Source: Candidatus Thorarchaeota archaeon (GTDB lineage Archaea; Asgardarchaeota; Thorarchaeia; Thorarchaeales; Thorarchaeaceae). From it: 44,907 bases of DNA. Below are positions 8,521-44,626 of this stretch, in pieces. The notes under the pieces are model-generated. The model was not told the origin of the DNA, made no database searches, and saw nothing but the letters and a program-made list of their open reading frames with translations. Both the position numbers and the translations under genes were made by a program. The DNA lies in NCBI GenBank assembly GCA_029858305.1, contig JAOUFI010000013.1, positions 1 to 44,907 of the forward strand, in the 5' to 3' direction. Within the stretch, counting starts at the first letter, position 1. Each line of letters opens with the position of its first letter.

Positions 8521-8714
8521 AGAATAACCTCCTGTTCAGCTGTCGTAATTTCTTTAATTCATAATTCGATTTTCACAGAATCATCCATTGCACAAACGCA
8601 TTGAGTTTAATCTTGATTGTTTTAATACACTTTGAATAGACCAAGCAGGTTAGACAATACCTTAAATGGTTCAAGACACGAAATAAAAATGTAAGGTATA
8701 ACATGGTGGTTTTC

Positions 8715-22962: not shown

Positions 22963-23133
22963 TACGTTTACCCCATCTCCATATTCTGATAGGCCTCTAA
23001 TGACTGTTCGTGTTACTTTAATCTCATCCTAATAGTAAACTAAAAACGCTTTCAGAATAATGACCCATCCGATGAATTTATACGGACGGCTCGTTCGAGG
23101 CCTTCCCGTCTAACACTACCGGTGCGTGTGAGT

Positions 23134-24480
23134 ATGAATAAATACATAGAGAGTGTTTACAACAGGATTGTCGAAAAAGACCCTGATCAAAAGGTTTTCC
23201 ATCAGGCTGTATTGGAAGTACTCGAGTCTTTGGAGCCAGCAATCAAGAAATATCCAAAGTACCAGGAATTCTCTATTTTAGAGAGAATAACAGAACCTGA
23301 ACGAATAATTCAGTTTCGTGTACCGTGGAAGGACAAGGATGGCAAGATTCAGGTTAACAGAGGCTTTAGAATTCAATTCAATTCGGCTATAGGGCCATAC
23401 AAAGGTGGTCTTCGTTTACATCCTACTGTTAATCAAGGCGTACTCAAATTTTTGGGTTTTGAGCAAGTTTTCAAGAATAGCTTGACAACTCTTCCGATGG
23501 GAGGTGCTAAGGGTGGTTCTGATTTCGATCCAAAGGGTAAGACTGATGGTGAGGTAGAGAGCTTCTGTGAGAGTTTTATGTTTGAACTCTATAGACACAT
23601 AGGTCAATTTATTGATATACCCGCTGGAGACATCGGTGTAGGTGGACGTGAAATTGGCTACTTTTATGGAGCTTATAGGAAAATTACAAACAACCATGGC
23701 ACTGGTGTTCTAACAGGCAAAGGCGGCGGTTGGGGTGGTTCATTAATTCGCCCCGAAGCAACTGGATTTGGTTGCGTGTACTTTGTGCAAGAGATGCTCA
23801 AGACTAAGGGTGAAGACATAAAGGGTAAGACTGTCTGTGTGTCTGGCTCAGGTAACGTTGCTCAATATGCAACCGAGAAGTGCATTCAACTAGGTGCAAA
23901 GGTAATTTCCCTTAGTGATTCTTCTGGCTGGATTCATGATCCAGATGGCATTACTCAGAAGAAACTTGATTGGGTTATGGATCTGAAGAATGTTCGTAGA
24001 GGCAGAATCCAAGAGTATGCAGAACAATTCAAAGTTGATTACTCAACATCGGGAAGCCCATGGAGCCTCAAGTGCGATATTGCATTGCCATGCGCCACTC
24101 AAAATGAGGTGGATGCAAACGAGGCGAAGGCACTTGTAGATAATGGAGTTCTTGCTGTTGGAGAAGGAGCAAACATGCCTACTGTACCTGAGGGTGTTGA
24201 AATCTTCCTCAAAAACAAGATTCTCTTCGGTCCTGGAAAAGCTGCCAATGCAGGTGGAGTGTCGGTTTCTGGCCTTGAGATGGCTCAGAACAGCCAGCGC
24301 TTCTTCTGGACACGTGAAGAAGTAGATGCTAAACTTCATCAGATCATGCAGAATATTCATGCAAATGCATACAAGACATCCGAGCTCTTTGGCGCAAAGG
24401 GTAACTATGTCATAGGTGCAAACATTGCAGGTTTCTTGAAAGTCGCCAATGCAATGATTGACCAAGGTCAATTTGCATAA
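23134..24480 (+). CDS. gdhA: NADP-type glutamate dehydrogenase
   Basis: GPYKGGLR, KNSLTTLPMGGAKGGSDFDP, PAGDIGVGGRE, SGSGNVA, PCATQNE, KAANAGGV motifs. Confidence 0.97.
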   Translation: MNKYIESVYNRIVEKDPDQKVFHQAVLEVLESLEPAIKKYPKYQEFSILERITEPERIIQFRVPWKDKDGKIQVNRGFRIQFNSAIGPYKGGLRLHPTVNQGVLKFLGFEQVFKNSLTTLPMGGAKGGSDFDPKGKTDGEVESFCESFMFELYRHIGQFIDIPAGDIGVGGREIGYFYGAYRKITNNHGTGVLTGKGGGWGGSLIRPEATGFGCVYFVQEMLKTKGEDIKGKTVCVSGSGNVAQYATEKCIQLGAKVISLSDSSGWIHDPDGITQKKLDWVMDLKNVRRGRIQEYAEQFKVDYSTSGSPWSLKCDIALPCATQNEVDANEAKALVDNGVLAVGEGANMPTVPEGVEIFLKNKILFGPGKAANAGGVSVSGLEMAQNSQRFFWTREEVDAKLHQIMQNIHANAYKTSELFGAKGNYVIGANIAGFLKVANAMIDQGQFA

Positions 24481-24491
24481 TTAAAAGACTA

Positions 24492-24530
24492 TGCGGGATT
24501 CCCTTGGAATCCTGCACTTTCTTCTTTTTC
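24492..24530 (+). terminator. Hairpin plus T-tract terminator between convergent genes
   Basis: TGCGGGATTCC-CTT-GGAATCCTGCA then CTTTCTTCTTTTT. Confidence 0.7.
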
Positions 24531-24548
24531 AATGATCAAATATAGCAA

Positions 24549-25154
24549 TCAACTTCGTATGATTTCTAAAAGCTCTGCAAGTCTACGCTTAATATCGGAT
24601 TCTACTGTTCGTAATTCCGCAAGTTGACGAATTTGTTCAATTCTACTCTTTCTATATTCTGCTTCTGAAATCTTACCATTTCTTCTTTCGCGTTCCATCT
24701 TGTCTGACTCTGCATTAATTTCTGTTCTTCTTGCCTCGGTAAGATCAAAACCCTGCTTAAGACTCATCCATTCAATCATCGCATGGCTTCTCTCCTCTTC
24801 CATGCGCAGTCGACGTTGTTTGTCAATCTCCATCTGTTTGAGCTGGTTATTGGCAGTCCTAATTTCTTTTTGAATCTCAAAGAGTCTTGCTTCTACCTCT
24901 CTCTTTACTTGAATCATCTGAGTCGATACTGCCCACTTATCGCGATATAGGATAATATGTTCTGATTCAGTTAAACTGCCACTAGCCAATTTCCGATCGA
25001 GGTCATTTAGTTCTTTTTGAATTTCGCTCAACTGTGTTTTCAATTCATCATAGGACTTTTTGAGCGAAACCCATTCAACACTATATTGGCTTAGAACTTC
25101 TTTCGGATCCACAAAGAACGTATCTTCACGTGTTGCACCTTCGCGATGACTCAT
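24549..25154 (-). CDS. Internally duplicated coiled-coil protein, CdvA-like
   Basis: Two repeats: EWVSLKKSYD..GSLTESEH and EWMSLKQGFD..GKISEAEY. Confidence 0.65.
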   Translation of the reverse strand: MSHREGATREDTFFVDPKEVLSQYSVEWVSLKKSYDELKTQLSEIQKELNDLDRKLASGSLTESEHIILYRDKWAVSTQMIQVKREVEARLFEIQKEIRTANNQLKQMEIDKQRRLRMEEERSHAMIEWMSLKQGFDLTEARRTEINAESDKMERERRNGKISEAEYRKSRIEQIRQLAELRTVESDIKRRLAELLEIIRS

Positions 25155-25314
25155 ATTGAGATTATCTCCGTTCCTTCATTAGATTTCATTACCTACCAAT
25201 GATTTAAGGCATTTCCTTAAACATCTTCTATTCTGTTTAATCTCTTCCATAAGAATTGTATTAACCTATCCTCTTAAGAGGTAGCAGGATATACATCAAA
25301 ATGCTGTGAGTGCG

Positions 25315-26382
25315 ATGGAGATAGAGATTAATCTAGCACCTCCTGAAGAACTAAAAGAGAAACCCTCAGATGTTCTTAAGGTTCCTTTCGGTACAGTATT
25401 CACTGATCATATGTTTTCAATGCAATATTCTGCAAGTAAATGGCACGATGCCATGATCCATCAATTTGCTCCATTGTCGCTAAGCCCTGCAGCCTTGTGT
25501 CTGCATTATGGTCAGGGCATATTTGAAGGTATGAAGGCATACAAGCATGAAGAACGCGTACTTCTCTTTCGTCCAGAAAAGAACTTTGAACGCTTAAATC
25601 GATCCGCTAATCGAATGGTGATGCCACATGTTGATGTCGATATTGCACTTGAGGCTCTTAAGAAACTGCTACTAATAGAAAATTCATGGGTACCAGATGT
25701 TGCAGGAAGTTCTCTCTACATTCGGCCCACTATGATTGGCACTCAAGCTAAGCTGGGTGTTAAGCCTGCTGATGAATACCTCTTCTATATCATTCTAAGT
25801 CCGGTAGGACCGTACTTCAGAGAAGGCTTTAGTCCTGTCAACATCTATCTAAGTACTGAATATGTCCGTGCAGTTCGTGGCGGTGTTGGTGTTGCTAAGA
25901 CTATAGGCAACTATGCTGCTGGTCTTTTTGCAGGAACGAAAGCCGCAGAAGTTGGCTGTTCTCAAGTTCTCTGGTTGGATGCACTTGAACGGAAGTATCT
26001 TGAAGAAGTAGGCACGATGAACATTTTCGTGAAGTTCGATGATGAGCTCGCCACACCCCCACTTAGTGGCACAATTCTAGCGGGAATCACCCGGGATTCT
26101 GTTCTAACTCTCGCAAAGGATATGGGAGTAAAAGTCATGGAGCGACAGATTTCCGTAGATGAAGTAATCGAAGGTATTGCATCAGGAAAGGTTGTTGAAA
26201 TGTTTGGTTGTGGCACTGCGGCAATCATTGCTCCTGTTGGTTCTCTGTGGTTCAACGATAGACCTTACACAGTATCTGATGGGAAGACTGGCAAACTAAC
26301 TCAAGAGCTCTTTGACGAACTAACTGGCATCCAATCCGGTATACGAGAAGATCGGTATGGCTGGATTGTTGAGGTAGATTGA
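25315..26382 (+). CDS. ilvE: Branched-chain amino acid aminotransferase
   Basis: FGTVFTDHM, LHYGQGIFEGMK, SLYIRP, AKTIGNY, EEVGTMN, ILAGITRDS, GCGTAA motifs. Confidence 0.96.
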   Translation: MEIEINLAPPEELKEKPSDVLKVPFGTVFTDHMFSMQYSASKWHDAMIHQFAPLSLSPAALCLHYGQGIFEGMKAYKHEERVLLFRPEKNFERLNRSANRMVMPHVDVDIALEALKKLLLIENSWVPDVAGSSLYIRPTMIGTQAKLGVKPADEYLFYIILSPVGPYFREGFSPVNIYLSTEYVRAVRGGVGVAKTIGNYAAGLFAGTKAAEVGCSQVLWLDALERKYLEEVGTMNIFVKFDDELATPPLSGTILAGITRDSVLTLAKDMGVKVMERQISVDEVIEGIASGKVVEMFGCGTAAIIAPVGSLWFNDRPYTVSDGKTGKLTQELFDELTGIQSGIREDRYGWIVEVD

Positions 26383-26389
26383 GAATCGC

Positions 26390-26749
26390 TTAAAGGTCAA
26401 ATTCATCTTTCTCAGCATCTGAAATTTCTGGTTCAGATGAATCAAGTGTATCCCATGCAGGCGGAGCATCCAGAGAAGATTCTTCATCATCAGAAATCTC
26501 ATATTGTTCCATTATTTCTGGAGGGAGTTCTTCTTCTTCTTCCTCCTCTTCTTCCTCTTCATCTGGCTCCACTAATTTGAATTCTCTCACAAGTTTGCCT
26601 TCTTCGATTCTCTCCAAGAGCAATCGAAACATTCTTTCAACGACAACGCTCCGGCCCTTGGCCTCGAACTCGATATTGCCAATTTCGAATTCAACTTCTG
26701 CGTAGTCAGATTTCTTTCCTTTCTTGTCTTTCAAATCGTCCTCCGACAT
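26390..26749 (-). CDS. Small acidic hypothetical protein with poly-Glu tract
   Basis: beta-beta-alpha N-domain (VEFEIGNIEFEAKG..VERMFRLLL), then DEEEEEEEEEE and an acidic tail. Confidence 0.7.
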   Translation of the reverse strand: MSEDDLKDKKGKKSDYAEVEFEIGNIEFEAKGRSVVVERMFRLLLERIEEGKLVREFKLVEPDEEEEEEEEEEELPPEIMEQYEISDDEESSLDAPPAWDTLDSSEPEISDAEKDEFDL

Positions 26750-26866
26750 TTTTCACAACCTAGCATCACTTATAGCTCTAACCTTAATAAACCGTGTAGG
26801 CATAATCCAAATATTGGATTCGCCAAAGCATTTTAGAGAGATTATTACTCATCACATGCTCCCGAG

Positions 26867-27382
26867 GTGGTTTATCTGCCATCACAATTGATTATTGATA
26901 TGAACCGATGCACAGGGTGCCGAATATGTGAATTGGCGTGTTCTGCACATCATGAAGGAAAATTCCAACCAAGTCTTGCACGGTTGAAAATAGTGCGATA
27001 TGACGATATTGGTCTAGATGTTCCTAATGTCTGTGGTCCTTGTGAAACTGCTCCTTGCGTTGATATCTGCCCTGTATATGCAATGCGTCGTGATCCTATT
27101 ACTAAAATGACCTATCTCGATGACGACAAATGTATCCTATGTAAATCATGTGTAGGCGTTTGCGTGAATGGAGTCATCCTTCTTGATACTGTTCAAATGA
27201 GAATCATCAAATGTGATCATTGTGATGGAGACCCCGAATGCGCAAAGGCATGTCCAACCGGAGCAATAACATATGGTCCAACAGCCTCATTGGCATCAGT
27301 CGATCGTCATGGTAAGATTATCAGTTACTTGAAAGAAATCAGCCGCACCAACAAAGCTGAAGAGGTAAGTGGAGCTGAGTGA
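26867..27382 (+). CDS. 4Fe-4S polyferredoxin subunit of the aldehyde oxidoreductase
   Basis: Four Cys clusters (CTGCRICELAC, CGPCETAPCVDICP, CILCKSCVGVC, KCDHCDGDPECAKACPTGA); overlaps next gene by GTGA. Confidence 0.93.
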   Translation: MVYLPSQLIIDMNRCTGCRICELACSAHHEGKFQPSLARLKIVRYDDIGLDVPNVCGPCETAPCVDICPVYAMRRDPITKMTYLDDDKCILCKSCVGVCVNGVILLDTVQMRIIKCDHCDGDPECAKACPTGAITYGPTASLASVDRHGKIISYLKEISRTNKAEEVSGAE

Positions 27383-29277
27383 TAATGGCTCGCGGCTACA
27401 TGGGTAAGTTTCTTCGTGTAAATCTTACCGACGGAATATTCAATGTTGAGCCTCTTCCAACATCATGGATAAAGGATTTCATTGGGGGTGACGGTTTTGG
27501 GGCAAAACTTCTCTTTACTGAAGTGCCTGGAAGAATCGATTCACTTAGTGACAAGAATAAACTCATTATTGCTACTGGTCCAATTACAGGCACAATGTGG
27601 CCAATGAGTGGTCGAACAGTTTTCATTTCAAAGGCTCCCTTAACAGGTATTTGGGGTGAGAGTCATGTGGGCGGATTCTTGGGAGCAGAACTCAAGTATG
27701 CTGGGTATGATCTGCTTGTTATTGAGGGAAAGTCCGAAAAACCAGTCTACATCTATATTGAAGACTCAGACCTTCAAATTAGGGATGCGCAACAGCTCTG
27801 GGGATTAACAACCGACAAACTGACAGGTGCCATCAAGAAGATACATCAAGATCCTGATATTCAAGTCGCCGCAATTGGACCTGCAGGTGAGCGGCTTGTT
27901 CGATATGCATCAGTAATGGTGAATCATGCAAGAGCTGCGGGACGAACAGGCATGGGAGCAGTACTTGGCAGTAAGAACGTTAAAGGCATAGCTATCAGAG
28001 GACATGGTGCGGTTGAAGTGCATGATCATTCCACTTTTATGGAGTTAGCCAAAGAGGCTCATTCCAGAGTACGCAGCAATCCCCAAGCACGACAGATGGG
28101 TAAGTACGGAACTTGGGTTCTTACAGCAGTGAAGCAAGAGATTGGTGAGTTACCCACATATAACCATCAGACTGGAGTCTTTGATGGCTGGGAGAAGTTG
28201 AGTGGCGATTACATACGACCGAGATACACAGTTGCCGATCGAGCTTGTTTTGGCTGCAGTTTGGGGTGCAAGAAAGTCAATTATGTGCGGGATGGTCCAT
28301 TTGCTGGAACTCTGGAAGAGGGCCCTGAATATGAGGGTTTGATGGCATTTGGTAGTTCACTAGGCATTGACGATTATGCTACAACTCTGAAGGCAAATCA
28401 GATTTGCAACAGATATGGCATGGATATTATCTCTGCGGGTGCCACGATTGGATTCGCTATTGAGGCATTTGTTAAGGGTGTTATCACAACGAAGGATACT
28501 GGTGGTCTCAAACTCAGCTGGGGTGATCGAGAACAGATAATTGATCTACTTCAGATGATTGCAGACAGGAAAGGTTTTGGTAACCTACTAGCTGAGGGAA
28601 GTAAGAGGGCAGCTGAAACGCTAGGTCGAGGAACCGAAAAGTTTGCAATTCATGTTAAGGGTATGGAAGTTTCAGGACAAGATGGGCGTACTCACAGAAG
28701 TATTGCTTTAGGTCATGCCACAGGGGCTCGAGGTGCCGATCATTTGCGAAGTCTCGTTGTTGTAGATCAACTTGGATATGAAGATGTAGCAGCGAGTCGG
28801 TGGGGCGCAGACAAGCTTCCGGAAATCATTGATCCTTACACTGAGAAATACAAAGCCAATGCAGTGTTTGAATCTGAGAATGCCTATTGTATTCGGGACA
28901 CCTTGATAGTCTGCTGGTATTCGGTATCATGGCCTCCAATCTTTTGGATGGAAGACTTTGCCAGGATGCTTCCTTCTGTGACTGGTGAGTCGTACTTGGG
29001 AAAGGTGGAAAACCTCACAAAGATTGCTGAACGTCAAGTAACGCTAAAACGTTTATTCAATGCAAGAGAAGGCATAACAAAGAAGGACGACCAGCTCCCA
29101 GATCGATTTACCAAAGAACCTATGCCTGAAGGTCCTGGGAAAGGTCAGACAGTCGATCTTGCACCTATGCTTAAGGACTACTACACTCTTAGAGGATGGG
29201 ACCTAGAAACAGGTCTTCCCACAAAAGAAACAGTTAAGCGATTATCACTGGAGTGGACTAAGGTCCACTCCGAGTGA
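27379..29277 (+). CDS. aor: Tungsten-dependent aldehyde:ferredoxin oxidoreductase family enzyme
   Basis: KAPLTG, IGPAGE, GRTGMGAVLGSKN, CFGCSLGC, GPEYE, LLAEG, VKGME, RGADH, YYTLRGWD motifs. Confidence 0.94.
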   Translation: MIMARGYMGKFLRVNLTDGIFNVEPLPTSWIKDFIGGDGFGAKLLFTEVPGRIDSLSDKNKLIIATGPITGTMWPMSGRTVFISKAPLTGIWGESHVGGFLGAELKYAGYDLLVIEGKSEKPVYIYIEDSDLQIRDAQQLWGLTTDKLTGAIKKIHQDPDIQVAAIGPAGERLVRYASVMVNHARAAGRTGMGAVLGSKNVKGIAIRGHGAVEVHDHSTFMELAKEAHSRVRSNPQARQMGKYGTWVLTAVKQEIGELPTYNHQTGVFDGWEKLSGDYIRPRYTVADRACFGCSLGCKKVNYVRDGPFAGTLEEGPEYEGLMAFGSSLGIDDYATTLKANQICNRYGMDIISAGATIGFAIEAFVKGVITTKDTGGLKLSWGDREQIIDLLQMIADRKGFGNLLAEGSKRAAETLGRGTEKFAIHVKGMEVSGQDGRTHRSIALGHATGARGADHLRSLVVVDQLGYEDVAASRWGADKLPEIIDPYTEKYKANAVFESENAYCIRDTLIVCWYSVSWPPIFWMEDFARMLPSVTGESYLGKVENLTKIAERQVTLKRLFNAREGITKKDDQLPDRFTKEPMPEGPGKGQTVDLAPMLKDYYTLRGWDLETGLPTKETVKRLSLEWTKVHSE

Positions 29278-32188: not shown

Positions 32189-32293
32189 ACGAGAAAGGCT
32201 ACGCGCAAGCTAGATTCAAATGAAAGGATACAGGTTCTCATATTAAGACTATTCTCAACATTAGCCCTAGCTTGCTAGATGAAGGAGAATACA

Positions 32294-34930
32294 ATGATGA
32301 GCGGGAAAAATCGAAGAGATGTACAGGCACAAAGCACTGTCGAAGCCATAAGAATGGCTTCCGCTTCAGTTTTGGGATCAACGACTGGTTTAGGCTATCC
32401 AGTTGGAAGCGCAATGGGCACAGGGAGTATGCTTGAACAGCATTCCGAAACGGTCTCAATGAATATTGCGCCTCTCGTCTTTAATGTGCGAGATACCTTA
32501 CTCTCTTCAGAAGGGCTAGAACTACTCTCAATTGAGTGGAATCTCGAGAGAACACCTGGACCTGGAGTTCTACCTGAACAACTCGTAGTAGCTGGTGGGT
32601 CTGAAGGAGGTGTTGGGACCCACGTCTGTGTATTGAGTTGGGAGAAGGGTGTTGTTGATCCCTTCAAAATAGACCAATACGTGAAGGAACTATCCAAAAA
32701 ACTTGGAGATATAGAAACTGCAGTTATAAACAATGAGCTCAATTATGATTTAGAAGGCCTTGCTGTCATTCAACGCTTTGCAGATCGTTTGAATAAGGTT
32801 CTATTCGTTGATATGCTTGATAGGCGATTCCAAGGCTCGTGGGATTCATTTCAGGTCAAAGCTGAGCAAATGGCAATAGAGGCTGTGGCACAGATGTCGA
32901 TTTATGATGACTTTACACTTGTCCCTCCTGGTTTGAAGATTTCTCAACGCAAGAAGCTTGATTTTAGATTGCCATCGTTATCAGAGGGTGATGTCTTTGA
33001 ACACTATCAACACCGTGTACTCACTCCGAGTGCTATTGAGCTATTAACAAAGACCGTACCAGAAACAGGGCAAGCAATACTTGATGAATTAAACACCTAT
33101 GCATATGCCATTGAGGAGGCTGATGTTGCTGAAGGTGTAATCTCAGTTCTGAAGGAATATCTCCAGACAGAAACGGTAAACCTCAAAGATTTACAATCTA
33201 TTAAGAGTAAGACTGCAGAGTTTGTGAGTTACCTTAATGATACTGTTGATGCTCTAGAGTTTGTTGTTGAACAACATTCGAGTTCTGGGAAGAATCTAAG
33301 TTTTGAAGGACACAAAACCGCACTTCTCGCAGATGTTGATACAAACAATGATAGATTCGAAGGAATCAAACATAAACTTGCTCAAGTGCTAGTTATACAA
33401 TTCATGAAGTCAATAGAAAGGGAATCTTTTCAACTCGAGGAGATTCGCGCATGGCAACTCAAGAGCACTCTAAGTTATTCAGTTGCCTATGCTAAAAGAG
33501 TCGCACAATACTTTGCTCAAGAATTTGATCACTATTTAATTACATCAGCGGCAAAAGAAGCATTCTTTACAGCACTTCGTGACTTTCGTCAAGAGGTTGC
33601 TCAAGAAGGCATGGATTCCACAAACGTGATGTTTTTTGAGAAATTTTATGCAGAGGTTGAATCAAAGATTAATGCATCCTTTTCAAGAAAGTCGTTTCAA
33701 GGTGTTGAATATCATGATTTTATTCAATTGATGGATTCAATAACGCGAGAGATGATTGAAACCTTCAGACACATTGATGTATGGAATCTAATTGAATTTT
33801 CAGATGTTGCAGAGATTGCCCGTTCTGAGATACAAAAGAAACATTCAGATCCCACCGATGTTGGGATGCTCACTCCAACTGGTACAGCGCTCATGGCTCT
33901 TTTAAACCAGTTCCAAACTAGTGTGTCAGATATCATCCCAAATGTAGCTGATACAATCTTATCGAAACCTGTAATCCGAAGGATGATTGACAAAATGAGG
34001 ACTGAGGGCACTAGTCTAAACGATGAACTTTCATCAGCAATTGAGAGCGCTGGTGAGAAGTCGGAGGAGTGGAGAAAGGAAGCAGTCAATTGGGTTGAAG
34101 GTTTCCGTGATAGCGTAGACGCTTCATTATCTCTCCCAGAATCTCTACTCGCTTTATTGCAATATGTGCATGAACTACTTAGTGAGGCTGTATCTCCAAG
34201 TGCAATTGCTGATCGGGTGAAAACAGAGGCAGATGCAAGGGAGGCTGCCTTCAAAACTAAACTAGATGAATGGCAATTCCTTTGCGATGAAATTAAACGT
34301 GAGAATGAAGTAATTCGCGACAATAATAATAGGCGTAGCGAACTCATAAACGAAACAACACGACAATATGAAACTGAGATGTCAGCATACGAGCGAGAAG
34401 TACGTGAATATCAGGAAAAGGTAGAACAAAGAGAAATTCTAAAGGCAAATGCAACCGAAGATGGGACAAAATTGCCTGAACTGCCGATGGAACCAGTTCG
34501 ACCTTTGCCGCTTGAACCACGCATTGAAACCATAAAAAGAAACTATCCAGTTGAACAAGAAAAATCATTCCCACCTGAACCCCAACCTGAATCCACTCTT
34601 CACTATTATGTTGAGCTACGAGATATTCTCTATGATAAACTGACAGAAATGAAAGAACGCGAAACTAGTATGGAGGAAACTTTTGCACGGAGAATCTTGA
34701 AACTGCAGGCAGAGGGGATGGGAGCTGCTGGAGTAATTAATATCAATATAGGTGATGAGTTTCTCGAGTACCTCATGGGTTCACGAATTCGAGGTCTTGG
34801 TCGATTGCTACCTCGTATCTCTCGTGTCTTCTTGAGAGACCCGAAAATAGCCAATCTTCTATATCTTATATCCTATGAACACTTTGATGACATATTGACA
34901 GTTTCAATTGGGAGTACGTATCTGAGGTGA
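32294..34930 (+). CDS. Large hypothetical helical/coiled-coil protein
   Basis: About 880-aa uninterrupted ORF; AAGGAG RBS before ATG 32294; coiled coil with Pro-rich insert near the C-terminus. Confidence 0.8.
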   Translation: MMSGKNRRDVQAQSTVEAIRMASASVLGSTTGLGYPVGSAMGTGSMLEQHSETVSMNIAPLVFNVRDTLLSSEGLELLSIEWNLERTPGPGVLPEQLVVAGGSEGGVGTHVCVLSWEKGVVDPFKIDQYVKELSKKLGDIETAVINNELNYDLEGLAVIQRFADRLNKVLFVDMLDRRFQGSWDSFQVKAEQMAIEAVAQMSIYDDFTLVPPGLKISQRKKLDFRLPSLSEGDVFEHYQHRVLTPSAIELLTKTVPETGQAILDELNTYAYAIEEADVAEGVISVLKEYLQTETVNLKDLQSIKSKTAEFVSYLNDTVDALEFVVEQHSSSGKNLSFEGHKTALLADVDTNNDRFEGIKHKLAQVLVIQFMKSIERESFQLEEIRAWQLKSTLSYSVAYAKRVAQYFAQEFDHYLITSAAKEAFFTALRDFRQEVAQEGMDSTNVMFFEKFYAEVESKINASFSRKSFQGVEYHDFIQLMDSITREMIETFRHIDVWNLIEFSDVAEIARSEIQKKHSDPTDVGMLTPTGTALMALLNQFQTSVSDIIPNVADTILSKPVIRRMIDKMRTEGTSLNDELSSAIESAGEKSEEWRKEAVNWVEGFRDSVDASLSLPESLLALLQYVHELLSEAVSPSAIADRVKTEADAREAAFKTKLDEWQFLCDEIKRENEVIRDNNNRRSELINETTRQYETEMSAYEREVREYQEKVEQREILKANATEDGTKLPELPMEPVRPLPLEPRIETIKRNYPVEQEKSFPPEPQPESTLHYYVELRDILYDKLTEMKERETSMEETFARRILKLQAEGMGAAGVININIGDEFLEYLMGSRIRGLGRLLPRISRVFLRDPKIANLLYLISYEHFDDILTVSIGSTYLR

Positions 34931-37386
34931 GATCTATGGCAAGTTCTTGGGTACTTAAAACACGACAAGGCAGCGAGGCTGGCAAAGAGATACTTCTTCG
35001 AGAAGCTTTAGTCACTCATATGCGCAGTACAAGGGATAGGCAGCTCTTTGCAGAAACGCTTACAGAAACTCAACCTCTTGAAGATGTATTCTCCTTTTTT
35101 GCCTCCTTCTATCTTCATAGCTATCAGGGCATCCGATTATTAAAGGCATCAGATTCTCCTGAGTTGACAGCAGACGGAAAAGATGACCTTGGTCGAGAAG
35201 AACGCCGTCAATTGGAACTAGAGGTTCGGCAACTCCTGGGTGAAAGACAGCGTGAAGAGATTGATATAGCTCGCATATCAAGCGAGCTTACCGTTCGACT
35301 CTGTGACGAATTGAGTGGAAAAGACAATTCGACTCCTGATACGCTAAACAAGATAATCTCGCTTATCAAAGAATATCTTCAAAAAATTCCTTCAGATTAC
35401 ACCCCCAATCATGATATTGATTTAATAATCGAAATCACTGGATGGGGCCCTGAATGGAGGGATGAGCTCTACACCAAAGCCTCCGGACTGAAAGAGAGCG
35501 CGCTATCCTTGAGGGAAGAGTTACTACGCGAACATCCTTCCGAAGTACCTGAAACAACTGTTCTTCAATGGGGTCTTGAGCATATTTTTGGTAAAATTGA
35601 ATATGCAAAAGGTCGATTGGCAGATACAATCATACCTCCCCGTAATTGGGAAAGGATTGCAACTACAATTTTAGAGCGTTTTTCCAGGAGTACTGATGAA
35701 CTTAATGCAATAAAGCAGGCACACATGATTAGACTATCTTTGCTTGATGCAGTCAAAAATGATTACGATAAGCCAACTACTATTGACGAATATGAGCGAA
35801 GGTTAGGGAATGTTGTCATCGGTTCGATTGCTGATGCTCTATCGGCGAACTCATCGTTTGTACTCGAGATTCTCTCTTCACTTCTGACAATAGGATCCGA
35901 TGATTTGAAAGCCCAACTTCGTCGAAAGGGCATTGATGATGTATCGGTTATTGGCGATGGTCTACGTGCACTGACCAGTGCAGTCGAAGAAACTCCCTCT
36001 GGTCCACAAGTCAGTAAAGAAGAGATGGAACTATTAGAAAGGTCTCTAAAGACATTAGAGAAGCTTGAAGACACTCTTGCGCGACCAGTGAAAGGTTTAC
36101 TAAAAGCTCGAGGCCTTCGAGCATCAGAGCTTGACAAAATTTCTATTGACTTGCTAGCCAAAAACCGGAATAGCTTAGTAGGCATTGAAATTGAGGTTCT
36201 TAATGAGTTATCGAAGAAGATGCGAGTTCCACCTCCAGAGGAGATCATAAGACTACTGGAGATTCGGAATCAAGTAAAGAGTGGCGCACTCAGTTCACTT
36301 GGTATTTCTTCTGCTCGTGATTTTAGTAAGCAACGAATCGAGGATGAGACAATAAGATCAATCAGGCTTGATATTATCTGGCATTTTACAACTGGTATTA
36401 TCACAAATCTTACTAGAGTTGTTGAGTCCTATATTCGATCGAAGCAGGATCTTCTACGTATCAAAGCTCTTCTAAAGAGTATATACGAAGACACTGATAC
36501 AAGTCTTCAATTTCTAAGAGAGGAAATACTAATTGATCTAGCTGCAATGCGCATCTATGAGTTTAAGGTGATTCATCCCAATCTTGACGCTGCGAGAATA
36601 TGCACATGGATGCATGCCCGTCTTTCGAATAAAGATATGAATGCAGCCCAACAAGAGCTTGAAAACACTCCTAGTCCAACCTTAGAGGGCATTATCGATA
36701 AGCCCCTTGAAATGGAGGGTCTTGATTACGATAACTATGCGATTGCATTCGACATTATGCAGAGATTCTTGAAACAGGAACGTTTGGAGAAACTTGCTAA
36801 GGAAGAGTATGCCTATGAAACAAAACAGAAAGAAAAATTGTCCATTGAATCCAAACGTGAGTCGATTGATATTCTAATGTATCTCCATAATAAAGCTCAG
36901 ACTGTCTTTCGCGCCATCGGGCGTGTAGGTACGAAGGGACTGGAATGGTCACAGAGTGATACAACAAAGTGCGCGAATCTTCTATCGTATTATATCAAGA
37001 CAAATCGGGGTCGATTAATTTGCTCTGCATGTGGTGCAGTGCTAAAGGAGAACAAATGTGACCAACACGGCAAGAATTTCGTGAAAGATTCTACGGACAT
37101 GGATAACCTAGCCATTTTCATCATGCGAGGAATCTACGAGATCAAGGATGGTTTGGTGGGTACGGGCAGGGGTGCTGAGCCAATGGCTTGGGACAAGGCT
37201 AAATCCACAATTGAAAAAGAGATTGGAGTTCTGAAGCGAAAGGGCAAGCTAACATCTAAAACGAATCTGAAAGAGCTGATGCCTGGAGAGATAAATTATG
37301 TCATTGGTCCTGCAATGTGTGCGATTGTTGGGCAATATTTCAATGAGTCATTGGTATATGCTGCCAGGCGTGCTGACATTGCATAA
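34927..37386 (+). CDS. Large hypothetical helical protein with C3H zinc finger
   Basis: 819-aa ORF abutting the previous stop (GTGA overlap, or ATG just downstream); CSACG..CDQHG. Confidence 0.8.
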   Translation: MRSMASSWVLKTRQGSEAGKEILLREALVTHMRSTRDRQLFAETLTETQPLEDVFSFFASFYLHSYQGIRLLKASDSPELTADGKDDLGREERRQLELEVRQLLGERQREEIDIARISSELTVRLCDELSGKDNSTPDTLNKIISLIKEYLQKIPSDYTPNHDIDLIIEITGWGPEWRDELYTKASGLKESALSLREELLREHPSEVPETTVLQWGLEHIFGKIEYAKGRLADTIIPPRNWERIATTILERFSRSTDELNAIKQAHMIRLSLLDAVKNDYDKPTTIDEYERRLGNVVIGSIADALSANSSFVLEILSSLLTIGSDDLKAQLRRKGIDDVSVIGDGLRALTSAVEETPSGPQVSKEEMELLERSLKTLEKLEDTLARPVKGLLKARGLRASELDKISIDLLAKNRNSLVGIEIEVLNELSKKMRVPPPEEIIRLLEIRNQVKSGALSSLGISSARDFSKQRIEDETIRSIRLDIIWHFTTGIITNLTRVVESYIRSKQDLLRIKALLKSIYEDTDTSLQFLREEILIDLAAMRIYEFKVIHPNLDAARICTWMHARLSNKDMNAAQQELENTPSPTLEGIIDKPLEMEGLDYDNYAIAFDIMQRFLKQERLEKLAKEEYAYETKQKEKLSIESKRESIDILMYLHNKAQTVFRAIGRVGTKGLEWSQSDTTKCANLLSYYIKTNRGRLICSACGAVLKENKCDQHGKNFVKDSTDMDNLAIFIMRGIYEIKDGLVGTGRGAEPMAWDKAKSTIEKEIGVLKRKGKLTSKTNLKELMPGEINYVIGPAMCAIVGQYFNESLVYAARRADIA

Positions 37387-37715: not shown

Positions 37716-37817
37716 AGTGAATTTGTGGCATTTCTGCCATATATCGACTTCCCTAGGAAAAGTATCCTAAACGAAGCCCATTTATACCGACCAGCTCGGA
37801 CAGGCATCGGTGATTCT

Positions 37818-39215
37818 GTGAGTAAGTTCGTGCCAAAAGGAGTAATGCCAGCACTTGTAACTCCATTCTCTAGAGATGGAGATATTAGCGAAGAAGGCTT
37901 CAAACAAGTCATCGATTATACTATCAGTAAGGGCGCAACAGGAGTTGTTCCAGCTGGAACGACTGGAGAGTTCTCATATATGAGAACGGAGGAGCGCAAG
38001 AAGCTCTTGAAACTTGCAGTTGAATATGTTGATGGCCGAGTTCCTATTATTGCTGGTACTGGTCAAAACAGTACTAGAGCAAGTGTACTCTTGACCAAGT
38101 ATGCTGCAGACATAGGCTGCGATGCAGCCTTAGTGATTTCACCATACTACCTGAGACCGGGTGATAAGGGATATTTTGAACACTACGCCACTGTGGCACG
38201 AAAGTCGGATTTGCCTGTAATCATGTATAATATTCCCCAATGCACTCTTGGTGTACTGAATTCTAATGTTGTCGAGGATCTTTCTGAGTTAGATAATATT
38301 GTGGGTATCAAAGATAGTAGTGGGAACATACCCTATCTACTCGAACTAATTCAGAAGGTGCAAGGTAAAATCGAGGTTATAATTGGAGCCGATGAATGCT
38401 TTATGTCCGCAGTAGCCGCTGGAGTAAATGCAGCTATTCTAGCTTCTGCAAATCTGATACCCCATATCTGGTTGGATATCATGAAAAAGGTCCGCAAGGG
38501 TAAGATCGAAGAAGCTGCGAAGCTACAGAACTCTGCACAGACTCTTGCACGTATAGTATTGAAGAATGGTGCGGCACCGCCAATCAAAGCTGGTCTTAAA
38601 ATGATGGGCATCAATGCCGGGAAATGCAGGATGCCCCTTGATACCGGAGGAACGCTCCCTCCTGAAACAAAAGAGGAAATTCGCCTGGAACTTGAAAAAC
38701 TTGGTATCATAGAAGAACTCAAGCACCCCCCAATCCAGAGGAAAATCCAAATTCTAGATGCACTAACACAACAGGGATTTGAGGTCAGAGATGCGTCAAA
38801 TATCAAACAGGGTACAGCATCCAACAATATTGTGTCAGTAGGAATTGCAGCTGGAAACAAGAACGGACCAATGGGTCGGACATTCATCAAATTGCTCACT
38901 AATGCGAAGATTGGTCATGAAGCTCTTTCTGTCATTCTCGAACCAAATCTTGCTGTCAAGCCTAGTAGTATTATGTTCCCGATCAGGAAAATCGACTCTA
39001 TGAGACAGGCATCATTGTTTTACGGTCCTGTCCAATCGGGAGTTGCACGAGCAGTGGCAACATTTCTCGAGAATGGTAAGATTCCAAGTCAATCTGTCGA
39101 AAATGATGTGATTGTTTTCGCCTTGGATGTCGACTTGAATACACGAAACCGCAGAGAAGTCACTATGGCAACTCAAGAGGCTACAGAAATTGCCTTGGCT
39201 GACATATGGAGGTAG
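37818..39215 (+). CDS. DapA-family class I aldolase fused to a Fae-like domain (paralog A)
   Basis: PALVTPF, GTTGEF, SPYY, YNIP, GIKDSSG; C-terminal GHEALSVILEPNLAVKP..FYGPVQSGVARAV; GTG 37818 with GGTGA RBS. Confidence 0.88.
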   Translation: MSKFVPKGVMPALVTPFSRDGDISEEGFKQVIDYTISKGATGVVPAGTTGEFSYMRTEERKKLLKLAVEYVDGRVPIIAGTGQNSTRASVLLTKYAADIGCDAALVISPYYLRPGDKGYFEHYATVARKSDLPVIMYNIPQCTLGVLNSNVVEDLSELDNIVGIKDSSGNIPYLLELIQKVQGKIEVIIGADECFMSAVAAGVNAAILASANLIPHIWLDIMKKVRKGKIEEAAKLQNSAQTLARIVLKNGAAPPIKAGLKMMGINAGKCRMPLDTGGTLPPETKEEIRLELEKLGIIEELKHPPIQRKIQILDALTQQGFEVRDASNIKQGTASNNIVSVGIAAGNKNGPMGRTFIKLLTNAKIGHEALSVILEPNLAVKPSSIMFPIRKIDSMRQASLFYGPVQSGVARAVATFLENGKIPSQSVENDVIVFALDVDLNTRNRREVTMATQEATEIALADIWR

Positions 39216-39221
39216 AAATAC

Positions 39222-40700
39222 ATGTACAACGGAGATTATCGTTTCAAGGGTGTATATCCCGCACTGGTTACTCCCTTTGATGAGAATGGTGTGAATGAGA
39301 AGCAGTACAGAGGTTTAATCGATTATGTAATTAAAGCCGGTGCAACTGGAATTGTTCCCTGTGGAACAACTGGTGAGTTTACCAGTATGAAGTTTGAAGA
39401 GAAAGTTGAGGCAATCCGAATCTCTTGCGAAGCTGCAAAGGGGCGTGTACCAGTTCTTGCAGGAACTGGGGCCGCGTACACTGGTGATGTTATCAAGCTG
39501 ACCAGACGTGCTTCCGAGCTTGGAGCTGCTGGAGCCCTAGTTGTTTCTCCATACTTTCTGAAACCTTCTCACAAGGAGGTCTTTGAGCATTTCGAGAAAG
39601 TGGCGAATAATAGTGATATTCCTATCTTCATTTACAACATTCCTCAAGTGACAGGAGTTCCAATGCATTGGACCCTTATTGATGGACTACGAGAGATTGA
39701 CGGAATCGCTGGTATGAAAGACTCTAGTGGTGACCTCGTCAATTTGACCACAATCCTTGTTCGTCGCCCAGAAACCTTCCAGGTTGTGGTTGGGCATGAT
39801 GAGGTAGCACTTCCAGCATTGGCATCAGGATGCGACGGAGCTATACTCGCAAGTGCGAATGTTTTCCCTGATAGATATATCAAGATGCAGACTGCATTGG
39901 CAACTGGTGATCTTAGAGAAGCTATGATCATTCAGCGGAGTATTCAGAAGACAGTTCGAATATTTGTTAACAATGGTGGCGGATTGGCAATTAAGGCTGC
40001 ACTGAATATGATTGGGGTGCCTGTGGGTATGGCTAGACCCCCACTCCTAATTGGAGACTCTCTAGGTTTTGCTGAGCTGGACGAATTGCGAGCTTGTCTT
40101 GAAGATCTTCAACTAATACCCCGAGGACCGGTTACATACAAAATGGGTAACAGATCTATCGTTGCTGAAAACTATCCTAAAGCTATTGGATTAGTACCTG
40201 ATGTCATTTCAGATCTCACTCTACTCCATGGAGAAGCACTGTTTGGTGCGAATACTGAAGTGGCTCATGTAGATCTAGTGCTTGGAATTAGAGATGGTCC
40301 ATTAAAAGAGGCTCTTGTCAAGGCGGGAAAGGTGATGGATGAACGGCACCAATCCAATGTGATTAAGGACCTTGAGCTTACCACTGTATTCTCACCGACT
40401 GTAACAATCACATCTGAGAGCCATAAGAAAATGGTATATGATGTGGCTCAAAAAGCAGTCGTAGATGCGGTAAAACGAACTATTACTGATATGATAATTC
40501 CTGAAGAGTTGATTCCCGATCTAGTACTTGTCGTGAATGTCTTTGTTCACCCAAGCGCAGCAAATCCGAAACGCGTTCATATCAACAATTTCATCGCTGT
40601 CCGTCATGCTATTAGGAGAGCCATTGAAGGGCGGCAAAGTGTTGATGAAATAATTGCACGAAAGGAGTCTGCTCGGCATCCATTTGCGTATAATCCCTGA
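39222..40700 (+). CDS. DapA-family class I aldolase fused to a Fae-like domain (paralog B)
   Basis: PALVTPF, GTTGEF, SPYF, YNIP, GMKDSSG; C-terminal GEALFG..EVAHVDLVLG..VFVHP..AIRRAIEG..RHPF. Confidence 0.9.
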   Translation: MYNGDYRFKGVYPALVTPFDENGVNEKQYRGLIDYVIKAGATGIVPCGTTGEFTSMKFEEKVEAIRISCEAAKGRVPVLAGTGAAYTGDVIKLTRRASELGAAGALVVSPYFLKPSHKEVFEHFEKVANNSDIPIFIYNIPQVTGVPMHWTLIDGLREIDGIAGMKDSSGDLVNLTTILVRRPETFQVVVGHDEVALPALASGCDGAILASANVFPDRYIKMQTALATGDLREAMIIQRSIQKTVRIFVNNGGGLAIKAALNMIGVPVGMARPPLLIGDSLGFAELDELRACLEDLQLIPRGPVTYKMGNRSIVAENYPKAIGLVPDVISDLTLLHGEALFGANTEVAHVDLVLGIRDGPLKEALVKAGKVMDERHQSNVIKDLELTTVFSPTVTITSESHKKMVYDVAQKAVVDAVKRTITDMIIPEELIPDLVLVVNVFVHPSAANPKRVHINNFIAVRHAIRRAIEGRQSVDEIIARKESARHPFAYNP

Positions 40701-42597: not shown

Positions 42598-43737
42598 ATG
42601 CAAGAATCTAGAGTACTATCACTTCTAAAAGATCTGGTCGCAACAAACTCAGAAAATCCGCCTGGACGAGAAGATTCAGTTGCTAAAGTGCTTCGTGATC
42701 ACATGGAAGCGAATGGGATTGCATGTATTTCAGTAGGATCAAGCAAACGGCCAAATCTCATATTTTCAAGTCATGAAGGTCAACGTGGTACTCTAGTCAT
42801 GCACGGCCATATGGACACAGTTCCGATTGGCAAATTGACAGACTGGTCGTACGATCCATTCGGATCTGAAATCATTGATGGACACCTATACGGTAGAGGC
42901 GCTTGCGATATGAAAGGACCGGTCGCAGCTCTTGTAGAAACTCTCATTCTTTATGCTGAAGAAAAGCATCGTGAACCTCTACTGATTCTAGCAACCTCTG
43001 ATGAAGAAAGTGGGTGTTCTGGAGCCGAAGAGGTGGCAAGAAGCGGAAAACTTGCTGGAGTAAAATACGGAGTTTGCGCTGAACCGACAGATCTTCAAGT
43101 TCTTGTGGGTGAAAAGGGAATGTTCTGGTTCAAGGTTATTGCCACCGGTAAGTCAGCACATGGGTCACGACCGTTAGAGGGTATTAATGCAATTGAAGCA
43201 TGTATGGAAGCCATAAAGACAATAGCTTCTGCACCGTTTCCACATGATGAAGATGTGTTGCTGGGAGAACCTACATTGAATGTCGGAATGATTCAAGGAG
43301 GTATCAAGATAAATGTGGTCCCTGCAACCTGCGAAGCCCAACTTGATATGAGAACGGTAAAGGGACAAAGTCCTGAATCCTTGACCACTCAGATGAACGA
43401 TAGACTTGAATCTGCAGGCCTTTCTGACAAAATACGAATTGAATACATCCATGGAAAACCATCTGTTAGTACTCCTCAAGAATCCGAGATAGTACAAATA
43501 GTAGTGGAAGAGGTCCAGCGTGTTACAGGTATAAGACCAGCTTTGAGTTCTGCTACATATGGGACTGATTGTTCTGTCTTGCAACCTAAGTTAGGTATCA
43601 TCAATGTAATATGTGGTCCTGGTTCGATTGAACAAGCTCATCAGCCTAACGAGTTCATAAGACTTAACCAGTTACACCAATCTATTGAAGTATATCTCGA
43701 AATCGCGCGTAGATTTGACAGAAAGCGGTTCTCCTAG
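42598..43737 (+). CDS. M20 family metallopeptidase/deacylase (ArgE/DapE-like)
   Basis: SENPPG, GHMDTVP, YGRGACDMKG, DEE, EPT, GKSAHGS, GTD, GPG..AHQPNE motifs. Confidence 0.93.
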   Translation: MQESRVLSLLKDLVATNSENPPGREDSVAKVLRDHMEANGIACISVGSSKRPNLIFSSHEGQRGTLVMHGHMDTVPIGKLTDWSYDPFGSEIIDGHLYGRGACDMKGPVAALVETLILYAEEKHREPLLILATSDEESGCSGAEEVARSGKLAGVKYGVCAEPTDLQVLVGEKGMFWFKVIATGKSAHGSRPLEGINAIEACMEAIKTIASAPFPHDEDVLLGEPTLNVGMIQGGIKINVVPATCEAQLDMRTVKGQSPESLTTQMNDRLESAGLSDKIRIEYIHGKPSVSTPQESEIVQIVVEEVQRVTGIRPALSSATYGTDCSVLQPKLGIINVICGPGSIEQAHQPNEFIRLNQLHQSIEVYLEIARRFDRKRFS

Positions 43738-44519
43738 GTTCGTTTTCTTGTGGCTCTCTTTGCAATCAAACAAGCTACCGATGCGGCTCCTATTCCATTG
43801 CCAATATTTACAACTGCAAGACCTGGTGAACATGATTGTAGCATAGATGCTAGAGCTGTTTCTCCTTTGCCTCCAAATCCATAGCCGGTAGGAACTGGCA
43901 CACCTATCACTGGAATATCTATCAGAGCAGCTACAACTGTTGGTAATGCTCCTTCCATCCCTGCGAACACTATGACTGCATCAATCTCCTTTTCGATGAT
44001 TTCTTTCAAAGGTTCTATTAATCGGTGAATACCCGACACTCCTACATCATAAAATGAGAAGACCTCAACCCCCATGAGCCTTGCCAAGGCTTCAGATTCC
44101 TTGGCATATGAAATATCTGACGTGCCTGCAGTTATAATAGCTATCTTGCCTTCTATTTGCTCTAATGTCCAATCTGGAGTATGAGCAAGAGCTGTGATTA
44201 TCGGACTCTTTCCATACGACTCAAGTTTCATTCCTTCAAGACTAGACTTCAATACATTTAGCTTTTCATCGGTTAGTCTTGTGATTAAAGCAACAGCATG
44301 AGTCTTCACAATACTTCTAACTATGGGCACGATATCTGCTGCATCCTTCGATTCAGCAAAGACTACTTCCGGTACTCCACTCCGAGTCTGTCTATCCAAA
44401 TCAATTGTGGCAATACTCCCAATTTGGTCAAGTGATAATGTTCTGAGTTGTTTCTCAGCCTCATGAATAGTTACCTTGCCAGAAATCAGATCCTGGAGTA
44501 TTTTTTTCACGTCGGTCAT
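43734..44519 (-). CDS. larB: Nickel-pincer cofactor biosynthesis protein LarB (PurE-like)
   Basis: DLDRQTRSGVPEVVFAESK, TAGTSD, DVGVSGIHRL, AGMEGALP, VPTGYG, SCSPGLAVVNI motifs. Confidence 0.92.
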   Translation of the reverse strand: MTDVKKILQDLISGKVTIHEAEKQLRTLSLDQIGSIATIDLDRQTRSGVPEVVFAESKDAADIVPIVRSIVKTHAVALITRLTDEKLNVLKSSLEGMKLESYGKSPIITALAHTPDWTLEQIEGKIAIITAGTSDISYAKESEALARLMGVEVFSFYDVGVSGIHRLIEPLKEIIEKEIDAVIVFAGMEGALPTVVAALIDIPVIGVPVPTGYGFGGKGETALASMLQSCSPGLAVVNIGNGIGAASVACLIAKRATRKRT

Positions 44520-44626
44520 GAAATGCACCTAAGATAATATGGCATGTTCTGTCAGGAGAAACTTTAAAGTTGGTGTTGTGTTGATTGAGCGTACTAAGTT
44601 GTTATATCTCAGCAGAGGGGCAGCCT

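Follow-up and report, generated by a model that had tools for sequence, protein, structure and literature searches.

Tandem DapA-annotated aldolase-Fae fusions of Thorarchaeota: a conserved protein pair with a putatively divided Fae site

The formaldehyde-activating enzyme (Fae) acts on formaldehyde and tetrahydromethanopterin (H4MPT), and in the solved Fae homopentamer the site for these two compounds sits between adjacent subunits. In the enzyme from Methylorubrum extorquens (M. extorquens), His22 was reportedly assigned as the acid catalyst in the paper that described the structure. Fae also occurs as one part of a fusion protein, Fae-Hps (NCBIfam NF009833), of methanogens and many archaea that contain H4MPT; the other part is an aldolase that forms or uses up formaldehyde. 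The Hps partner is a metal-dependent barrel that is unrelated to the class I aldolases and acts on a sugar phosphate, and the Fae domain of Fae-Hps is N-terminal. The third point of comparison is 4-hydroxy-tetrahydrodipicolinate synthase (DHDPS, the DapA of lysine biosynthesis), a class I aldolase in which Arg138 (Escherichia coli numbering) binds aspartate semialdehyde.

In this report, we describe two adjacent genes, A and B, on the forward strand of contig JAOUFI010000013.1 of a Candidatus Thorarchaeota archaeon (assembly GCA_029858305.1). The whole stretch of DNA that was analyzed, positions 1 to 44,907 of this contig, is referred to as the window. Each gene encodes a DHDPS-family aldolase followed by a Fae-fold domain, and the two Fae domains have lost different parts of the Fae active site. 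We propose, with a probability of about one half, that A and B are the two subunits of one enzyme in which a class I aldolase is coupled to a divided Fae site and thereby links a keto acid with H4MPT. The features of the locus are as follows.

37818..39215, + strand: gene A, 465 aa; DHDPS-family aldolase domain and "A-type" Fae domain
37836..38642, + strand: gene A, class I aldolase (DHDPS/NAL family) TIM barrel, matched by Pfam
37956-37970, 38226-38246 and 38310-38324, + strand: gene A, barrel motifs GTTGE, YNIPQCT and KDSSG (Schiff-base Lys), respectively
38823..39200, + strand: gene A, Fae-fold domain; catalytic His/Asp replaced by Ser340/Gly342, C-terminal arm gone
38940-38963, 39000-39014 and 39021-39035, + strand: gene A, retained Fae motifs EPNLAVKP, MRQAS and YGPVQ, respectively
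39222..40700, + strand: gene B, 492 aa; DHDPS-family aldolase domain and "B-type" Fae domain
39243..40049, + strand: gene B, class I aldolase barrel, matched by Pfam
39363-39377, 39633-39656 and 39717-39731, + strand: gene B, barrel motifs GTTGE, YNIPQVTG and KDSSG, respectively
40230..40697, + strand: gene B, Fae-fold domain; EPNL loop deleted
40230-40241, 40263-40274, 40542-40553 and 40671-40697, + strand: gene B, retained Fae motifs GEAL, AHVD (catalytic His349), FVHP and the arm ARHPFAYNP, respectively
39208..39212, + strand: GGAGG ribosome-binding site for gene B, within the last codons of gene A
37781..37786, + strand: TTTATA, tentative candidate for an archaeal TATA box, 32-37 nt 5' of the GTG of gene A

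The open reading frames extend from 37725 or 37818 to 39215 (gene A) and from 39222 to 40700 (gene B), and the GTG start of gene A at 37818 agrees with the N-termini of its orthologues. The TAG stop codon of gene A (39213-39215) is followed by a 6-nt spacer, AAATAC. The short gap and the position of GGAGG inside the end of gene A fit translational coupling of the two genes, and TTTATA, from its position, may be the promoter of gene A. The original prediction, which was made from the letters of the window alone, had described two genes 6 nt apart, each with a DapA-type barrel and a C-terminal Fae domain, and Pfam profiles matched both domains in both proteins. The arrangement was compared at 41 loci from species-representative genomes, all of them Thor-type metagenome-assembled genomes. 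A full A orthologue was found immediately 5' of B at 34 of the 41 loci; at three loci A is interrupted by the end of the contig, and at the other four no more than 189 nt of upstream sequence is available. The same order, A-type upstream and B-type downstream, was found in tandem pairs from two other families (loci L067 and L068).

The Fae profile PF08714 (159 positions; cut-off 27 bits) matched A with an E-value of 2.4e-27 (96.3 bits, profile positions 10-135) and B with an E-value of 4.7e-28 (98.6 bits, positions 2-158). The predicted match to Fae was thus borne out by Pfam, although both domains score below the 118.05-bit cut-off of the NCBIfam Fae equivalog model TIGR03126, with 91.5 bits for A and 110.7 bits for B. 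The prediction treated the two domains alike, but they differ: the GEAL..AH.D motif and the C-terminal arm are missing from A, whereas B lacks the EPNLxVKP loop and MRQAS..YGPxQ. In full, the losses of the A-type proteins comprise the His/Asp face, FVHP, an NN pair and the entire C-terminal arm. The B-type proteins have lost the EPNL loop by deletion, MRQAS, and the Gly-Pro of YGPxQ. Related proteins encoded by single genes keep all of the motifs that are shared with the M. extorquens structure 1Y5Y, namely GEAL..AH(I/V)D, (E/A)PNLxxKP, FGPAQ, F(V/I)H and the C-terminal ..HPF. The catalytic His is His349 in B and is replaced by Ser340 in A, and a catalytic His is accordingly not present in every subunit but only in A and B taken together.

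Two motifs, the His motif and that of the loop, served to assign the proteins to the A, B and single types, and the columns for FVHP, the RHP arm and Gly403 are independent of the assignment. For the counts, proteins shorter than 425 aa were dropped, and the odd member P0131, in which both motifs are missing, was kept apart as "X". The Phe/His of FVHP were found in 46 of 46 B-type proteins, in all 23 single forms and in 3-4 of the 43 A-type proteins. The RHP arm is present in 45/46 B-type, 23/23 single-form and 0/43 A-type proteins, and Gly403 in 43/43 A-type, 23/23 single-form and 0/46 B-type proteins. In a quick maximum-likelihood tree of 59 rows, the fused family separates from six plain DapA proteins (support 100), and the A and B clades each receive 99% SH-aLRT support. 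The single-gene forms are basal in this tree without a resolved order, which leaves room for one old duplication. By their motifs, A and B are complementary halves rather than redundant tandem copies, each keeping what the other has lost. This retention pattern is the one that would be expected of a working site rather than a decaying one.

The complex of the two Fae domains was predicted as a 1:1 model from residues 297-465 of A and residues 297-492 of B, with a separate alignment for each. The ipSAE score was 0.89 (0.89, 0.86 and 0.90 in the individual runs), and the best control reached 0.00. Contact agreement did not fall below 93%, nor the partner pLDDT below 86. In a calibration, 58 of 80 solved complexes and 2 of 110 mismatched pairs attained this mark, figures that are approximate in that own alignments were used. 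The predicted interface comprises residues 373-381 (LEPNLAVK), 395, 398-400, 402-404 and 406-407 of A, and residues 336-340 (HGEAL), His349, Asp351 and the arm 472-489 of B. The retained half-sites of A and B face one another in the predicted complex, and the position of this interface is the informative part of the model. The predicted interface residues are more conserved than the other residues, with entropies of 0.83 versus 1.47 for A (p = 5e-5) and 0.60 versus 0.82 for B (p = 0.025). The AlphaFold2 model of gene B (pLDDT 91.3, pTM 0.90) contains a beta-hairpin linker that joins its two domains. The predicted complex points to A and B as an obligate heteromer with one composite Fae site.

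A different role for the Fae module has to be weighed here, in which the aldolase acts on a larger aldehyde, as in enzymes of the KDG, KDX or HOGA type, and the Fae module serves as a non-catalytic H4MPT-binding domain with a regulatory or scaffolding function. The scores below the Fae equivalog cut-off are compatible with such a role, as is a G-H-D-E sequence after the barrel that resembles the sugar-binding GxDE of sialic-acid lyases. Genes for an aldehyde:ferredoxin oxidoreductase and for amino-acid fermentation also lie 10 kb upstream of the pair. However, His/Asp, GEAL and the arm are invariant in the B-type proteins (46/46, a count that follows in part from how the types were defined, and 45/46 for the arm) and in the single forms (23/23). 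A shows no variation in the opposing face, and the fusion is confined to families that possess Mch. We consider a larger aldehyde with a non-catalytic Fae module to be unlikely.

The barrels themselves appear to be intact class I aldolases. The DHDPS profile PF00701 covers the whole barrel in both proteins, with E-values of 1.7e-78 for A and 4.3e-69 for B. Both contain GTTGE, the motif for the pyruvate carboxylate, YNIPQ with the catalytic Tyr133, and KDSSG with the Schiff-base Lys. The Schiff-base Lys is retained in 42 of 43 A-type proteins, 44 of 46 B-type proteins and all 23 single-gene forms. The N-terminal domain of gene B has the DHDPS fold, with target-normalized Foldseek TM-scores of 0.93-0.95 to DHDPS structures. 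Two distant members, P0127 (Leu) and P0130 (Ala), lack the Schiff-base Lys together with other catalytic residues and keep the Fae half-site; in these lineages the aldolase of one subunit is probably dead.

The simplest account of these barrels is that of the databases, namely an ordinary DapA of the lysine pathway that carries an extra Fae domain. Both proteins exceed the 206.15-bit cut-off of the NCBIfam dapA equivalog TIGR00674 (220.6 bits for A and 224 bits for B), which is the cause of the annotation. The closest matches in the PDB, by sequence and by fold, are all DHDPS, and every source name is "4-hydroxy-tetrahydrodipicolinate synthase". This account is nevertheless hardly to be credited. 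The Arg of YNVPGRS in solved DHDPS aligns with Val143 of gene B, and the position equivalent to Arg138 is occupied by Cys in 41 of the 43 A-type proteins, by Val in 40 of the 46 B-type proteins and by one of Cys, Leu and Val in the single-gene forms; no Arg was found there in any of the 43 A-type, 46 B-type and 23 single forms. At the position equivalent to Tyr107, 41 of the 46 B-type proteins have Phe.

The partners of the diaminopimelate (DAP) pathway were sought in 41 genomes of the Thor family, the family of the source organism; these comprise 40 genomes that are at least 90% complete and the source genome, which is 88.9% complete in 205 contigs. The check for dapB that had been proposed with the original prediction returned no match to the equivalog TIGR00036 above its cut-off in any of the 41 genomes, and the control was positive in 11 of 14. 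PF01113 gave only weak partial matches of at most 41.6 bits, in frames of 320-400 aa that have the wrong size. Profile searches of the source genome found no DapB_N and no DapF (DAP epimerase), and its best matches to the lysA model were far below the cut-off (84 versus 297.9 bits). Asd was found in 11 of the 41 genomes and not in the source genome, where A and B are the sole DHDPS matches and the sole Fae matches. With the DHDPS-specific Arg lost and the DAP pathway absent, A and B are, as judged from their sequences, not lysine-pathway DapA enzymes, and the possibility raised by the original prediction that they are ordinary DHDPS is very improbable.

In the mechanism that we favor, each subunit would contribute an N-terminal pyruvate-type barrel of the DHDPS/NAL family with its Schiff-base Lys and a C-terminal Fae-fold domain. 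One pair of A and B would form one composite Fae site, to which B would contribute the face with His349 and Asp351 together with the C-terminal arm, and A the opposing loop face (EPNLAVKP, MRQAS and YGPVQ). The aldolase would most likely interconvert a 4-hydroxy-2-oxo acid with pyruvate and formaldehyde, in either direction, and the adjoining Fae site would interconvert formaldehyde and H4MPT with methylene-H4MPT. Mtd, Mch and Ftr could then connect methylene-H4MPT to the one-carbon (C1) branch of the Wood-Ljungdahl pathway. The net reaction would be a reversible transfer of a hydroxymethyl group between pyruvate and H4MPT, functionally like those of Fae-Hps, serine hydroxymethyltransferase (SHMT) or PanB. 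We infer formaldehyde as the aldehyde by analogy to Fae-Hps, since an intact Schiff-base aldolase and a constrained Fae site occur together only in organisms that have H4MPT.

The H4MPT genes that the mechanism calls for were looked for in the source genome, as had been suggested, and two copies of Mch were found together with Ftr and Mtd; no Hps (TIGR03128) scored above its cut-off. The phylum was surveyed in 400 genomes with families labeled f1 (the Thor family, from which the source genome was left uncounted) onward. In f1, Fae matches were obtained in 78 of the 85 scored genomes, nearly always as two weak matches (E-values of about 1e-27 to 1e-36) that correspond to A and B, and no canonical Fae was found among these 85. 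In most other families a canonical Fae (E-values of about 1e-55 to 1e-73) is present in frames of 400-430 aa, which fits Fae-Hps in size.

A search with the single-gene relative P0120 found full-length fusions in 79/85 genomes of f1 (two in each), 82/135 of f22, 15/19 of f14, 10/12 of f13 and 3/3 of f4, and also in f5, f28, f30, f32 and one genome of f21. The matches in f17/f18 and in genomes G148 and G307 (E-values of 1e-61 to 1e-64) probably represent DapA-family genes without the fusion. Mch is present in every family with a full-length fusion, and neither the fusion nor Fae was found in the Mch-less families f7-f12 and f24-f27 (85 genomes). Since related genomes are not independent, this co-distribution is a pattern and not a statistic. 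In a wider search, about 15 clusters of 430-500 aa with both domains were found among 1.84 billion library representatives, and the names on further relatives include Bathyarchaeia, Thermoplasmata and Anaerolineae, all annotated as DapA. Among the best 120 homologues of gene B that were listed, every source organism is named Thorarchaeota, Promethearchaeota or Promethearchaeia, and the product is "4-hydroxy-tetrahydrodipicolinate synthase" save for four fragments that are named after Fae. The DapA-Fae fusion is widespread and not a local curiosity.

The restriction of the fusion to families with Mch would also be seen if the enzyme belonged to the biosynthesis or salvage of H4MPT, with the Fae fold holding a precursor and the aldolase modifying or supplying a building block of the side chain. 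In f14 a CitG-like gene (PF01874, E-value 5.6e-57) adjoins the fusion, and homologues of CitG have been tied to H4MPT biosynthesis in methylotrophs. This gene is, however, convergent with the fusion and not co-transcribed, and the arrangement is found in one family of close relatives only. Several Mch-positive families have no fusion (f6 0/4, f15 0/5, f16 0/6, f23 0/4, f29 0/4, and f19), and the fusion can therefore not be essential for H4MPT synthesis. We regard a role in making or recovering H4MPT as very improbable.

The identity of the keto acid is a separate matter. The simplest candidate is 4-hydroxy-2-oxobutanoate, a choice that we consider rather doubtful. The original prediction had connected this compound to homoserine, and that connection was not supported: above the respective cut-offs ThrB and MetX were found in 0/41 Thor-family genomes, Hom was found in 3/41, and MetX reached an E-value of 1e-10 or lower in 2/41. 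A ThrC-like protein scored above its cut-off in 36/41. Across the phylum, Hom was found in 3/85 genomes of f1, 0/3 of f4, 0/12 of f13, 0/19 of f14 and 0/3 of f28, an inverse tendency relative to the fusion; Hom and the fusion occur together in f22, f30 and f5, and about 35 genomes of f22 (compiled by hand) hold both. A role of the fusion in supplying or removing homoserine was set aside, since the searches for pathway gaps gave no support for it, and no conclusion was drawn from the phylum-wide tally of Hom.

The gaps in amino-acid biosynthesis are an observation in their own right. The Thor family lacks most of Hom, ThrB, MetX and DapB and has a patchy Asd, yet it possesses several threonine-synthase-like paralogues that depend on pyridoxal phosphate, one of them in the window (11284-12450, - strand). 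This suggests, as far as gene content can indicate, that the family is auxotrophic for threonine, methionine and lysine or uses unrecognized routes to them.

The same chemistry could operate on another 2-oxo acid. In this case the enzyme would be a hydroxymethyltransferase that takes C1 units from methylene-H4MPT for biosynthesis, with 2-oxobutanoate, hydroxypyruvate or, as an analogue of PanB, 2-oxoisovalerate as the acceptor. The Fae domain and the H4MPT context are equally compatible with such substrates, and a gene of the MOFRL glycerate-kinase type lies near the fusion in f4. That gene, however, lies on the opposite strand, and f4 is the only family in which it was seen; enzymes of the DHDPS family are typically specific for pyruvate. 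A canonical PanB is encoded in the source genome (E-value 4.6e-115), so that an analogue is not needed, and the idea of a PanB analogue was set aside. An acceptor other than pyruvate appears distinctly unlikely.

Returning to the proposal of a two-subunit aldolase with a divided Fae site, several points weigh against it. The score of the predicted complex may stem from a resemblance to 1Y5Y, the homopentameric Fae structure that has been solved. In a ring of five Fae subunits A and B could not alternate, and the pair must therefore have a quaternary structure unlike that of known Fae. The counts for the His and loop columns, and in part the grouping in the tree, are circular by the definition of the types, and the evidence from the tree is that of a quick maximum-likelihood search only. 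Both proteins pass the dapA equivalog model and fall below the Fae equivalog model. With Hom, ThrB and MetX largely absent, the Thor family has neither an evident source of homoserine nor an evident sink for it, which bears on 4-hydroxy-2-oxobutanoate in particular, and the f22 genomes that hold both Hom and the fusion show that the fusion is no simple replacement for Hom. No named pathway emerged from the neighbors of A and B in the window or at the loci from other families. Finally, the chemistry was read from sequence and predicted structure.

On balance, the coupling of an aldolase to Fae in the manner of Fae-Hps, which was the core of the original prediction, stands as the best reading, with the architecture, the Pfam match to Fae, the H4MPT enzymes, the missing dapB, dapF and lysA and the lost Arg in its favor, whereas its homoserine link falls away. 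We consider A and B to represent a real, conserved and apparently misannotated enzyme family, a variation on the aldolase-Fae theme with a plausible chemistry and a composite site that is divided between the subunits. The most specific form of the proposal is a natural and widespread two-subunit pyruvate:H4MPT hydroxymethyltransferase, in which formaldehyde would pass directly from an aldolase for 4-hydroxy-2-oxobutanoate, or an analogue, to the split Fae site; it would tie central C3 metabolism to the C1 pool of the Wood-Ljungdahl pathway in Asgard archaea, Bathyarchaeia and further anaerobes of sediments. This form is put forward tentatively, with the odds against it. The original prediction knew of no characterized DapA-Fae fusion, and our full-text literature search likewise found nothing on a DapA-Fae or DHDPS-Fae architecture in the main texts of the articles that it covered; the tables of articles on Asgard metabolism may list the gene. 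What the passages retrieved from PMC5020050, PMC11291895 and PMC9723716 name is limited to H4MPT genes, Fae-Hps or stand-alone Fae.

The neighbors of the pair in the window are a divergent gene for CutA, an unknown membrane protein, an M20 deacylase of the ArgE/DapE type and a LarB-like gene. The deacylase gene (42598-43737, + strand) lies downstream of B and recurs at 28 of the 41 Thor loci; near the fusion in f14, fragments of M20 genes were seen as well. The deacylase gene is followed by the LarB-like gene, which has the AIR-carboxylase fold (43734-44528, - strand). Upstream of the pair, two overlapping open reading frames of 883 and 819 aa (32279-34930 and 34927-37386, + strand) have no family match and are kept in the same order at 27-30 of the 41 Thor loci. 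Further upstream, a cluster of the amino-acid-fermentation type (23122-29277) encodes glutamate dehydrogenase, a class IV aminotransferase, a poly-ferredoxin and the aldehyde:ferredoxin oxidoreductase. A gene of the Snf7 (ESCRT-III) family at 8703-9380 (+ strand) is a eukaryote-like signature, as would fit an Asgard origin.

Outside the Thor family, the gene directly upstream of the fusion belongs to one of two unknown families, designated c1 and c3. The highly conserved c3 protein of 426-435 aa (L063, L064, L069, L072 and L074-L076) is directly upstream of a single-gene DapA-Fae at 7 of 7 loci from f22, f13 and f21, and a homologue with 66% identity is encoded elsewhere in the source genome (L084:1501-2781, - strand; contig C205). 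Searches with c3 gave no sequence match in Pfam, NCBIfam or the PDB and nothing from the ESM Atlas. More than 8000 homologues were found, the product is "hypothetical" throughout the 120 that were listed, and the AlphaFold2 model is poor (pLDDT 65). The c1 protein of 315 aa (L060:526-1470, L052:333-1271, L067 and L071) lies just upstream of DapA-Fae in f14, f5 and f32 and is divergent from it in f4 and f28. It had no match in Pfam or the PDB and was not found in the source genome with a c1 query; the nearest ESM Atlas clusters carry the label "U32 peptidase-like" (score 0.98), although only 17-23% of their members are assigned to the family.

If the proposal is correct, thousands of genes annotated as DapA in Asgard archaea, Bathyarchaeia, Thermoplasmata and Anaerolineae are misannotated, and the metabolic reconstructions of abundant sediment lineages miss a C1 link between the level of pyruvate and H4MPT. 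To our knowledge, the aldolases for pyruvate and formaldehyde used so far in synthetic methylotrophy are promiscuous side activities. A natural enzyme of this kind that works with a C1 carrier would be of interest to that field as the counterpart of the engineered aldolase step. The A and B pair also offers a clear and testable case of an inter-subunit active site that was partitioned after gene duplication, and would be a clean example of complementary half-site degeneration leading to an obligate heteromer.

Among the known systems, Fae-Hps is the closest in concept, as a fusion of Fae with a formaldehyde aldolase in organisms that have H4MPT. The Fae-Hps model NF009833 matched A and B in the Fae part only, at 80-86 bits against a cut-off of 274, and the Hps domain was not matched. 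A and B differ from it by a class I barrel of the DHDPS family, by the C-terminal position of Fae and by a site that is apparently split over two paralogous subunits, and the Thor family lacks canonical Fae, just as the source genome lacks an Hps above the cut-off. The M. extorquens Fae (1Y5Y and 1Y60) belongs to the same fold family (phmmer E-values of 3.4e-18 for B and 4.8e-12 for A), and B keeps the His and the C-terminal arm to which roles are ascribed in that enzyme. The M. extorquens protein, however, is a stand-alone homopentamer with both faces in each subunit, whereas A and B have one face each and are tethered to an aldolase. With DapA the two proteins share the fold, the Schiff-base Lys, Tyr133, the carboxylate-binding GTTGE and a score above the TIGR00674 cut-off, but they lack the aspartate-semialdehyde Arg and the pathway partners and carry an additional C-terminal module of 190 aa. 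What SHMT, PanB and the 4-hydroxy-2-oxobutanoate aldolase of the engineered homoserine cycle share with the proposed enzyme is the net reaction, in which a C1 unit moves reversibly between a pterin carrier and a carbanion adjacent to a carbonyl or imine. The folds and cofactors of these enzymes are unrelated to those of A and B, which would use two fused modules that pass free or channeled formaldehyde, and the resemblance is a functional analogy only.

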